The notes beneath the pieces are model-generated. The model was not told the origin of the DNA, made no database searches, and worked only from the letters and a program-made list of their open reading frames with translations. Source: a virus. Taken from it: a stretch of 64,000 bases of DNA. The stretch lies in the IMG/VR virus record IMGVR_UViG_3300045988_097942; one strand, given 5' to 3'. Within the stretch, counting starts at the first letter, position 1, and every line of letters starts with the position of its first letter. Below, one piece after another: positions 57,546-58,316 of the stretch. The position numbers and the translations under genes were made by a program.

Positions 57546-58316
57546 TTAATTAAATGTTCTTGTAAAAGCTAAATTATTAAAATCATTCATTCCTCGCGGA
57601 ACTGCAAAAATAACTTTTTTAAAACATTTATATTCTTGTTCAAGATATTTCTTAAATACTGTAGCGACTTCATATGGGTCTTGACCAAATACTCCGCATC
57701 CAAAGGCTCCGAGTATAAGTGTTTCAACTCCACGTTCCGCGGCAATATCTAAAATAAAATGAACTCTTTCATCAAGAACTTTACTATTTTCTTCATTAGA
57801 TACATTTGCATACTTTTGTGCAGCTCTTTTATTAGGACAAGCACAAGTAATTACATCTGCCTTAATAGGTTTCATCATCTTTTTCAAGAAAAGTACATCT
57901 TCTGAATAAATTGCTCTATCAAGATAAAGTGATTTATTTCTATGCTGCTCATTCCAATCATAATATGATTGATGCTGTCTTAGTACATTATATAAAATAG
58001 ATTCATGACATAGACACTCTTCTTGAGCTTGACTACCTTCTATAAACATTCCACCAGGATGACGATATGAAGCAAAATTAAGAACTGCGGTTTTACCTTC
58101 ATGATACTTATAGAGAGCACTCACGCTATCCATAGGGACAACCTGTATAATCATATCCGCGTTCTTAGTAAATGTATGGTTATAATCTTTATTTGGTCCA
58201 TATATATGACTACAAACTGAAGCAACTTCGTTTTCATACTGAGTATCTACCATATTAGTATGCTCCTTTGCTTTAGTCATATTCTCTTGTTTATTACTCC
58301 ACGCATAACTTCTCAT
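57546..58316 (-). CDS. Bacterial-type poly(ADP-ribose) glycohydrolase-like macrodomain protein (DUF2263/TIGR02452)
   Basis: VLNFASYRHPGGMFIEGSQAQEECLC (PARG GGG-x-QEE signature region) and LILGAFGCGVFGQDP. Confidence 0.65.
   Translation of the reverse strand: MRSYAWSNKQENMTKAKEHTNMVDTQYENEVASVCSHIYGPNKDYNHTFTKNADMIIQVVPMDSVSALYKYHEGKTAVLNFASYRHPGGMFIEGSQAQEECLCHESILYNVLRQHQSYYDWNEQHRNKSLYLDRAIYSEDVLFLKKMMKPIKADVITCACPNKRAAQKYANVSNEENSKVLDERVHFILDIAAERGVETLILGAFGCGVFGQDPYEVATVFKKYLEQEYKCFKKVIFAVPRGMNDFNNLAFTRTFN

Follow-up and report, generated by a model that had tools for sequence, protein, structure and literature searches.

Reversal of RNA ADP-ribosylation by bacterial poly(ADP-ribose) glycohydrolases (PARGs) was first shown in 2025. 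Lu et al. found that SCO0909 of S. coelicolor and DRB0099 of D. radiodurans were the only hydrolases tested that reversed the RNA 2'-O-ADP-ribosylation made by RhsP2, a 2'-OH mark with chemically the same 1''-2' linkage as in poly(ADP-ribose) (PAR), and that both enzymes protected E. coli from RhsP2; SCO0909 was also more active than any other enzyme on RNA carrying 5'-phospho-ADP-ribose from a Tpt1/KptA enzyme (PMC11833690). A substrate table from 2026 lists PARG or bacterial PARG for RNA 2'-O-ADP-ribose, for ADP-ribose on 5'- or 3'-phosphates and for poly-A marks (PMC12945103 Table 1). The enzymes known to serve phages against ADP-ribosylating immunity are erasers of DNA base marks, either NADAR or DarG/TARG1-like. 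Here we describe a PARG-type gene in phage DNA, at positions 57546..58316 (minus strand) of a 64,000-nucleotide (nt) stretch of the IMG/VR virus record IMGVR_UViG_3300045988_097942, which we call the window. Our preferred reading, held tentatively, is that its product may be a nucleic-acid (mainly RNA) de-ADP-ribosylase within an RNA-damage counter-defence kit.

The gene is an ATG-initiated open reading frame (ORF) that spans exactly this interval in the ORF list and includes NFASYRHPGGMFIEGSQAQEE and GAFGCGVF. An earlier reading of the same DNA from its letters (the original prediction) had given the same 256-amino-acid (aa) ORF and motifs, without a strand, and they match exactly. The start codon was taken as right because the ribosome-binding site AAGAAAGGAA lies at ~58325-58333, ~8 nt 5' of the ATG, and because the alignment with homologues begins at residue 1, with W6, A16, and H19 invariant. 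The gene and its upstream signals are as follows.

57546..58316, minus strand: PARG gene (bacterial-type, DUF2263/TIGR02452), 256 aa, identified by ORF, profile, sequence, and structure matches
58325..58333, minus strand: ribosome-binding site AAGAAAGGA, ~8 nt before the ATG, read from sequence and invariant in the related loci L001-L005
58342..58370, minus strand: sigma-70/sigma-A-type promoter with -35 TTGATT at 58370-58365, a 17-nt spacer, and extended -10 TGATATAAT at 58350-58342

Judged from profiles and a structure model, the phage protein is an unambiguous member of the bacterial-type PARG family, as the original prediction had proposed in calling it a PARG-type macrodomain. It scored 98.5 bits against PF10021 PARG_cat_microb (cutoff 23.5) and 203 bits against TIGR02452 (cutoff 50), the latter covering residues 17-245, and 16.7 bits against Pfam Macro, under the cutoff of 22. 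The only solved relatives found by sequence in the PDB were the PARGs of D. radiodurans (E 8e-25) and T. curvata (E 1.6e-23), whose alignments included AQEE and LGAxGCGVF. The catalytic motif, P-G88-G89-M-x7-Q98-E99-E100 (PGGMFIEGSQAQEE), carries the two consecutive catalytic glutamates of the GGG-X6-8-QEE signature of PARGs at a spacing of 7 residues. Its sole departure from the textbook signature is methionine in place of the third glycine, and this methionine is at least 90% conserved in the Clostridia/phage subfamily. Q98-E99-E100 align to the AQEE of the D. radiodurans PARG (DrPARG) and are invariant in 27 homologues at ~50% identity. In the diphosphate-binding loop, L-G203-A-F-G206-C-G208-V-F210-G-Q (LGAFGCGVFGQ), the same 27 homologues keep G203, G206, G208, V209, F210, G211, and Q212 invariant; the loop has the conserved phenylalanine of the F227 region of T. 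curvata PARG (TcPARG) and aligns to LGAWGCGVF of DrPARG.

An AlphaFold2 model computed from these 27 homologues (pLDDT 85.9, pTM 0.87) has a macrodomain fold with an N-terminal helical extension, in which helices at residues 9-33 precede the alpha/beta core. In Foldseek the model superposed over its full length on T. curvata PARG (3sih; TM score 0.85, E 1.6e-19). The best matches were 3sih/3sig/3sij and the 5zd-series entries, with query TM scores (TMq) of 0.73-0.85 over ~250-278 columns, and other macrodomain classes gave TM scores of ~0.4-0.55 with root-mean-square deviations of >5 Å. The protein thus belongs to the same Pfam/NCBIfam family as T. curvata PARG (3SIG), D. radiodurans DRB0099 (5ZDA-G), and S. 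coelicolor SCO0909, and it shares with bacterial-type PARGs the fold with its helical extension at the N-terminus (TM 0.76-0.85), a similar size (~250-277 aa), the QEE glutamates, and the GxGCGxF diphosphate loop. It differs from them in being only ~30% identical, in reading GGM-x7-QEE instead of GGG-x6-8-QEE, and in being phage-encoded. With its catalytic residues intact and under purifying selection (dN/dS of 0.10-0.20 against relatives), the gene is to all appearances functional, and family membership predicts that the protein is very probably an active ADP-ribose glycohydrolase. It is a phage-borne addition to a well-known family: no phage example was found in the literature searched and no PHROGs family matched it. 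PADLOC, which holds known and candidate defence-system proteins, gave no match at E <= 0.01.

The promoter upstream of PARG scored 10/12 against consensus and has the TG of an extended -10 (TG-n-TATAAT). In DNA this AT-rich, a match to the hexamers is not significant by itself: 22 promoter-like sites were observed versus 27.8 +/- 5.9 in shuffles. In relatives with 86-95% identical PARG proteins (L001, L003), the 58 nt 5' of the ATG, which contain the -35, the -10, and the ribosome-binding site, are 91-97% identical, while identity falls to 59% farther upstream in the rest of the divergent intergenic region and to ~51% at PARG synonymous sites. Conservation of this block while the flanking DNA and synonymous sites diverged argues for a real promoter. 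The original prediction had given PARG a promoter of its own; the element is indeed conserved, but it is not private, since at least three closely spaced genes follow it, separated by 25 and 2 nt, and no terminator is predicted among them. PARG opens a leftward arm of ~54 kb that continues through replication and nucleotide-metabolism genes, and it is predicted to be co-transcribed with the next two genes, a metallophosphatase and a nucleotidyltransferase (NTase).

56795..57520, minus strand: calcineurin-like metallophosphatase, 241 aa, operon gene 2, lambda-phosphatase/NinI-like and PrpE/ApaH-like
55749..56792, minus strand: N-terminal Pol-beta-superfamily NTase with a C-terminal CodY-like winged helix-turn-helix (wHTH), 347 aa, operon gene 3

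The metallophosphatase matched PF00149 (E 3.7e-10), phrog_246 (NinI-like, E 2e-31), and lambda phosphatase (PDB 1g5b, E 1.6e-6), with weak matches to the Pnkp phosphatase (E 2.5e-4) and to PrpE and ApaH. It adjoins PARG in L001-L005, L140, L141, and L072. The NTase matched phrog_388 nucleotidyltransferase (E 1.5e-14), with CodY HTH matches at its C-terminus. It is a doubtful candidate for an RlaP: it scored 18.7 bits against PF10127 (cutoff 23), was likewise under the cutoff for NTP_transf_2, had only the GS..D.D motif in common with true RlaP, and gave no RlaP structure match. The order PARG-phosphatase-NTase/wHTH is kept in close relatives and, at the divergent junction, in L072, where PARG is 43% identical. 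Like DRB0099, which sits in a ligase-PARG-HD phosphatase/polynucleotide kinase operon (PMC11833690), the phage PARG shares an operon with a phosphoesterase and lies near ligase and kinase genes. Its direct partners, however, are a lambda-phosphatase-like metallophosphoesterase and an NTase-wHTH rather than a ligase and an HD-phosphatase/polynucleotide kinase.

On the opposite strand, a rightward cassette (58471-60292, plus strand; ORFs of 92, 312, 88, and 82 aa) faces the PARG promoter. Relatives have different genes in its place (XkdX plus 421- and 238-aa ORFs in L001; a 306-aa Phage_tail_C-like ORF in L140), which suggests a variable tail-fibre or host-range cassette. Downstream of the operon, an 837-aa protein (50651-53164, minus strand) has major-vault-protein shoulder and repeat domains (PF11978, 77.7 bits; PF17795), and next to it is a 517-aa flotillin/Band_7-like membrane protein (53555-55108, minus strand). 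Both genes are conserved at this place in L001, L003, and L140. Vault-like proteins are unusual in phages.

A scan of viral contigs with the single PARG protein gave no confirmed relatives, and an alignment-based scan recovered them. The PARG family is not rare in its niche: the subfamily was found on at least 159 contigs of IMG/VR, many of them 90-200 kb long, and in ~50 species of the GTDB, almost all of them Lachnospiraceae or other Clostridia. Family matches in isolated phages are rare, with only 20 records, namely Lak megaphages, gp114 of Bacillus phage G, and huge uncultured phages. One relative (L006; ENA ERZ4559904 NODE_27, a phage-like contig of 327 kb) has a 51% identical PARG homologue beside YopX and Phage_VG64 genes, with, 4-8 kb upstream, genes for nicotinate phosphoribosyltransferase (NAPRTase), a radical-SAM protein, and NAD synthase. 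These families thus occur together in a far larger phage as well. Neighbourhoods were compared in 3,686 ORFs clustered de novo from 140 sequences (139 loci and the window), and the loci were grouped at 90% PARG identity into 60 lineages, which are not phylogenetically independent. No gene was a fixed partner of PARG across the 60 lineages, and even the commonest neighbour family, the metallophosphatase, was within six genes in only 10 of them. PARG behaves like stand-alone cargo, and its neighbours vary.

RNA-repair-type genes were nevertheless concentrated near PARG. The class comprised Thg1-like, RlaP (PF10127, 56 bits), NTase-wHTH, RNA ligase, PNK-like (polynucleotide kinase-like) kinase, TROVE-like DUF2828, and KptA/Tpt1 (PF01885, 162 bits) genes, and it made up 21 of 343 genes within three positions on either side of PARG versus 24 of 1162 farther out (odds ratio 3.1, p = 4e-4). 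The excess of metallophosphatases was weaker and not significant. In a Pfam census of 150 PARG-flanking genes, Metallophos occurred six times, KptA/Tpt1 and ABC_tran four times each, and RNA_ligase three times; Thg1, AAA_33, RlaP, PhoH, isochorismatase, and two exoribonuclease families occurred twice each. KptA/Tpt1 was the only family of the ADP-ribosyltransferase superfamily that recurred in this census; PARP, DarT, and TIR-domain families were not among the recurring ones. KptA/Tpt1 lies next to or within three genes of PARG in at least seven Acetatifactor/Lachnospiraceae genomes.

L103, L108, L110, L111, L114, L119, L127, and L134: KptA/Tpt1 (PF01885) beside PARG, ~60-1600 nt downstream of the PARG match

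These loci look chromosomal because their contexts share almost nothing with the phage loci. The PARG-KptA/Tpt1 pair, which we did not find described, is a candidate writer-eraser or repair pair.

These associations bear on what the phage enzyme may do. As expected from its family, the macrodomain pocket would bind an ADP-ribose unit and Glu99/Glu100 would act as the catalytic residues that hydrolyse the bond at C1'' of the distal ribose, which releases free ADP-ribose. The substrate would be ADP-ribose on nucleic acids, mainly RNA, carried on the ribose 2'-OH or on 5'- or 3'-phosphate ends and placed there by host ADP-ribosyltransferase toxins or KptA/Tpt1-type enzymes. PARG would be expressed from the conserved promoter at the head of the leftward arm, and removal of the ADP-ribose block would make the RNA usable or repairable again. 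Repair could then be completed by the phage phosphatases, PNK-like kinase, NTase, Thg1-like enzyme, and RNA ligase, all encoded in the window, and the net effect would be that translation continues under host attack. The RNA-processing genes outside the operon are listed here.

36712-37944, minus strand: PIN-PhoH fusion
38920-39411, minus strand: PNK-like kinase (AAA_33), paired with a metallophosphatase at 38369-38920
43468-44679, minus strand: RNA ligase with a PHA02142 OB domain
48276-49082, minus strand: Thg1-like 3'-5' nucleotidyltransferase
60315-61799 and 62026-63441, minus strand: TROVE-like protein and tRNA gene region

The RNA ligase, kinase, and Thg1-like genes are 8-19 kb away from PARG. 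The TROVE/Ro60-like protein (DUF2828 plus DUF7788; phrog_850 "RNA-binding protein", E 4e-121) is encoded directly downstream of four tRNA genes (Ala-TGC, Thr-TGT, Gly-TCC, and Cys-GCA), and a strong terminator follows its gene at 60308-60281. No Y-RNA-like Rfam match reached the gathering threshold. The TROVE-like protein and the tRNA genes may form an RNA quality-control module. Described RNA-repair cassettes (Pnkp/Hen1, RNA ligase with RlaP, KptA-2H-Macro) resemble this setting in that PARG homologues lie preferentially beside such genes and in that the window has ligase, kinase, phosphatase, Thg1-like, and tRNA genes. They differ in that their macro domains are MacroD/Poa1-like phosphatases of ADP-ribose-1''-phosphate (Appr1p), not PARG-type (PMC7824862, PMC9503650), and in that the window has no KptA by tblastn and an NTase that is under the RlaP cutoff. 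No 2H phosphoesterase was recognised among the window ORFs scanned.

Several points weigh against a role in RNA de-ADP-ribosylation. Activity of the phage copies is a family inference, and hydrolysis of PAR, RNA 2'-O-ADP-ribose, or phosphate-linked ADP-ribose has been shown only for the family members SCO0909, DRB0099, TcPARG, and HaPARG (PMC11833690, PMC8120803). An RNA-repair-type gene is within three to six genes of PARG in only 16-18 of the 60 lineages, so the association is statistical, not obligatory, and the shared ancestry of these lineages further tempers it. The "writer" is hypothetical because the window lacks KptA and, by Pfam in the ~45 window ORFs scanned, any recognisable ADP-ribosyltransferase (ART) domain, PARP or other. 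The operon partners by themselves do not indicate RNA repair, since the NTase is sub-threshold for RlaP and carries a DNA-binding wHTH and the phosphatase is no closer to RNA-end phosphatases than to protein Ser/Thr phosphatases. Finally, the founding activity of the family is on protein-linked PAR, and a PARP is reported from a Lachnospiraceae, Butyrivibrio proteoclasticus (PMC8120803), as are PARP genes from gut jumbo phages (PMC11662467).

The window also contains a four-gene NAD+ cluster, which the original prediction had regarded as complemented by PARG.

42443-42922, minus strand: PncA-like isochorismatase
41217-42431, minus strand: NAPRTase
40607-41224, minus strand: NadD-like adenylyltransferase
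39886-40629, minus strand: NAD synthase NadE

By its domain content this cluster (39886-42922) encodes the whole Preiss-Handler route starting from nicotinamide and is distinct from the described NAD+ reconstitution pathways, which are Adps plus Namat (NARP1), Nampt plus NMNAT (NARP2), and PnuC plus NadR (NARP3) (PMC13464706). Similar pncB-nadD-nadE clusters are reported from gut jumbo phages (PMC11662467); the present one is in a ~140-kb SPbeta-like phage. The cluster exists as predicted, but its link to PARG is unsupported: it is 15 kb away, and genes of NAD salvage show no enrichment near PARG (2 of 343 versus 11 of 1162; odds ratio 0.6, p = 0.74). Free ADP-ribose, the product of PARG, is not a Preiss-Handler substrate, and hence there is no direct metabolic coupling between the two.

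PAR itself, on which the family's founding activity was seen, is another possible substrate, and the phage enzyme could be the eraser half of a writer-eraser pair that degrades PAR on proteins or DNA, made by a host PARP in stress or defence or by a phage PARP encoded elsewhere in the genome. PAR is hydrolysed by the PARGs of T. curvata, H. aurantiacus, and D. radiodurans, early studies having shown exo-glycohydrolase activity on it, and sets of PARP, PARG, and MacroD are reported for C. difficile and Butyrivibrio proteoclasticus (PMC8120803); the PARP genes of gut jumbo phages also fit, and the window is 64 kb of a ~140-kb genome. We consider this reading unlikely, because neither the scanned window ORFs nor the recurring PARG-flanking families include a PARP and because endogenous bacterial PARylation is scarcely evidenced (PMC8120803). 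A different target was named in the original prediction, which likened the protein to DarG and saw an anti-defence factor against ADP-ribosylating immunity such as DarTG. The protein would then remove ADP-ribose from DarT-modified thymidine or guanosine in phage single-stranded DNA, mimicking the antitoxin. Phages do carry orphan hydrolases of this kind, such as NADAR against DarTG1 (PMC11825919), the DarG2-like macrodomain of chimalliviruses (PMC13309987), and a Vibrio phage factor that mimics the antitoxin (PMC11481870), and the phage PARG resembles them as an orphan ADP-ribose-removing hydrolase of the macrodomain superfamily with no toxin partner, an "orphan eraser". A counter-defence role is plausible, but published specificities disfavour DarTG as the target: thymidine-linked ADP-ribose is assigned to DarG2, TARG1, and SCO6735 and guanosine-linked ADP-ribose to NADARs, not to PARG (PMC12945103 Table 1), and the documented bonds cut are ribose-ribose or ribose-phosphate for PARG and base-linked for DarG and NADAR. 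The DarG analogy is also unsupported by structure, since DarG is an ALC1/TARG1-like macrodomain (PMC7050489) and the known phage factors are NADAR or DarG/TARG1-like, whereas the present protein is PARG-type, has no DarT-binding domain, and matches PARGs at TM 0.73-0.85 with other classes at ~0.4-0.55. With no PADLOC match, no DarT recurring nearby, and no ART domain in the window ORFs scanned, we regard a DarTG target as very improbable.

Soluble ADP-ribose derivatives are a further set of possible substrates, among them ADP-ribose-1''-phosphate or ADP-ribose cyclic phosphate (ADPr>p) from KptA-type repair, O-acetyl-ADP-ribose, and TIR signals such as 1''-2' glycocyclic ADP-ribose (gcADPR). 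The adjacency of KptA is equally compatible with clearance of such by-products and with cap removal. The 1''-2' gcADPR molecule holds the same ribose-ribose glycosidic bond as PAR and so matches the bond specificity of PARG. In phages, processing of Appr1p and cyclic ADP-ribose (cADPR)-type signals is a known or proposed function of macro domains (PMC7824862, PMC9503650), but the literature searched gave no example of a PARG-type enzyme with activity on gcADPR or Appr1p, tblastn recovered no KptA in the window, and TIR-domain families do not recur among the PARG-flanking genes, which leaves small-molecule processing a doubtful explanation. A narrower form of it, in which the phage PARG is an enzymatic anti-Thoeris/anti-TIR factor, not a sponge, and cuts the intramolecular 1''-2' bond of gcADPR or related messengers, would sit with a promoter-proximal, stand-alone gene with variable neighbours, and we rate it a long shot. 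Least credible to us is a role in NAD+ economy, in which ADP-ribose freed from conjugates would feed nucleotide or NAD+ recycling together with the phage NAD+ salvage genes. It can point to the complete Preiss-Handler set in the window, to the NAPRTase and NAD synthase genes 4-8 kb from the PARG homologue of the 327-kb phage-like contig, and to a PncA-like gene that adjoins PARG in two Clostridiales genomes (L125, L126) and is within three genes of it in 3 of 60 lineages. Against these stand the lack of enrichment already given, the fact that the Preiss-Handler route starts from nicotinamide or nicotinate and not from ADP-ribose, and the fact that no NARP1-type Adps/Namat genes were seen. RNA de-ADP-ribosylation remains the reading that we prefer, at the tentative strength stated at the outset.

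The window derives from a low-GC phage of ~140 kb that is distantly SPbeta-like. The GC content is 31%, and the genes include those for PolIII-alpha, DnaB, primase, a RecJ-like protein, gyrase-like topoisomerase subunits, ligase, ThyX, NrdD/NrdG, dUTPase, and endolysin, among others. PolIII-alpha has ~40% identity to YorL from SPbeta-like Bacillus phages and from Enterococcus phages of 134-138 kb, an identical PARG protein occurs on contigs of up to 139 kb, and close relatives occur on contigs of 142-146 kb. A megablast search of 55000-60500 against 50,697 phage records gave no match; the phage has no close isolate. Because members of the PARG subfamily are almost all in Lachnospiraceae or other Clostridia, the host is probably a gut Lachnospiraceae. 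At the other end of the window, a full-length RT-2 RNA motif (Rfam RF03077, 94 bits; 81-315, plus strand) lies directly upstream of and overlaps the start of a reverse-transcriptase ORF (304-1080, plus strand; 258 aa, RVT_1, YMDD motif), the two making up a phage-borne unit of reverse transcriptase and structured RNA. An HD_4 (RelA/SpoT-type HD) protein of 196 aa (44756-45346, minus strand), between the RNA ligase and an unknown gene, is small-alarmone-hydrolase-like; alarmones of the (p)ppGpp or (p)ppApp type could be its substrates. Two GIY-YIG ORFs, likely homing endonucleases, are found among the replication genes, and an S24 (LexA/UmuD-like) peptidase-domain ORF is also present; all three were identified by domain matches.

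16028-16423, minus strand: S24 ORF
16424-16975, minus strand: GIY-YIG ORF
25781-26695, minus strand: GIY-YIG ORF

As a form of counter-defence, an orphan eraser is a mechanism class already known for other hydrolase families, and nothing proposed here is mechanistically unprecedented. If the preferred reading is true, a PARG-type eraser extends the counter-measures of phages from DNA base marks to RNA 2'-O- and phosphate-end ADP-ribosylation. The published idea that bacterial PARGs repair Tpt1-type ADP-ribose caps gains genomic support from the PARG-KptA/Tpt1 pairs of Lachnospiraceae chromosomes, which also point to a tractable writer-eraser pair. The phage PARG is small, confidently modelled, and easily tested on defined substrates, and it is a candidate to be the first phage counter-measure of the PARG type against RNA ADP-ribosylation.

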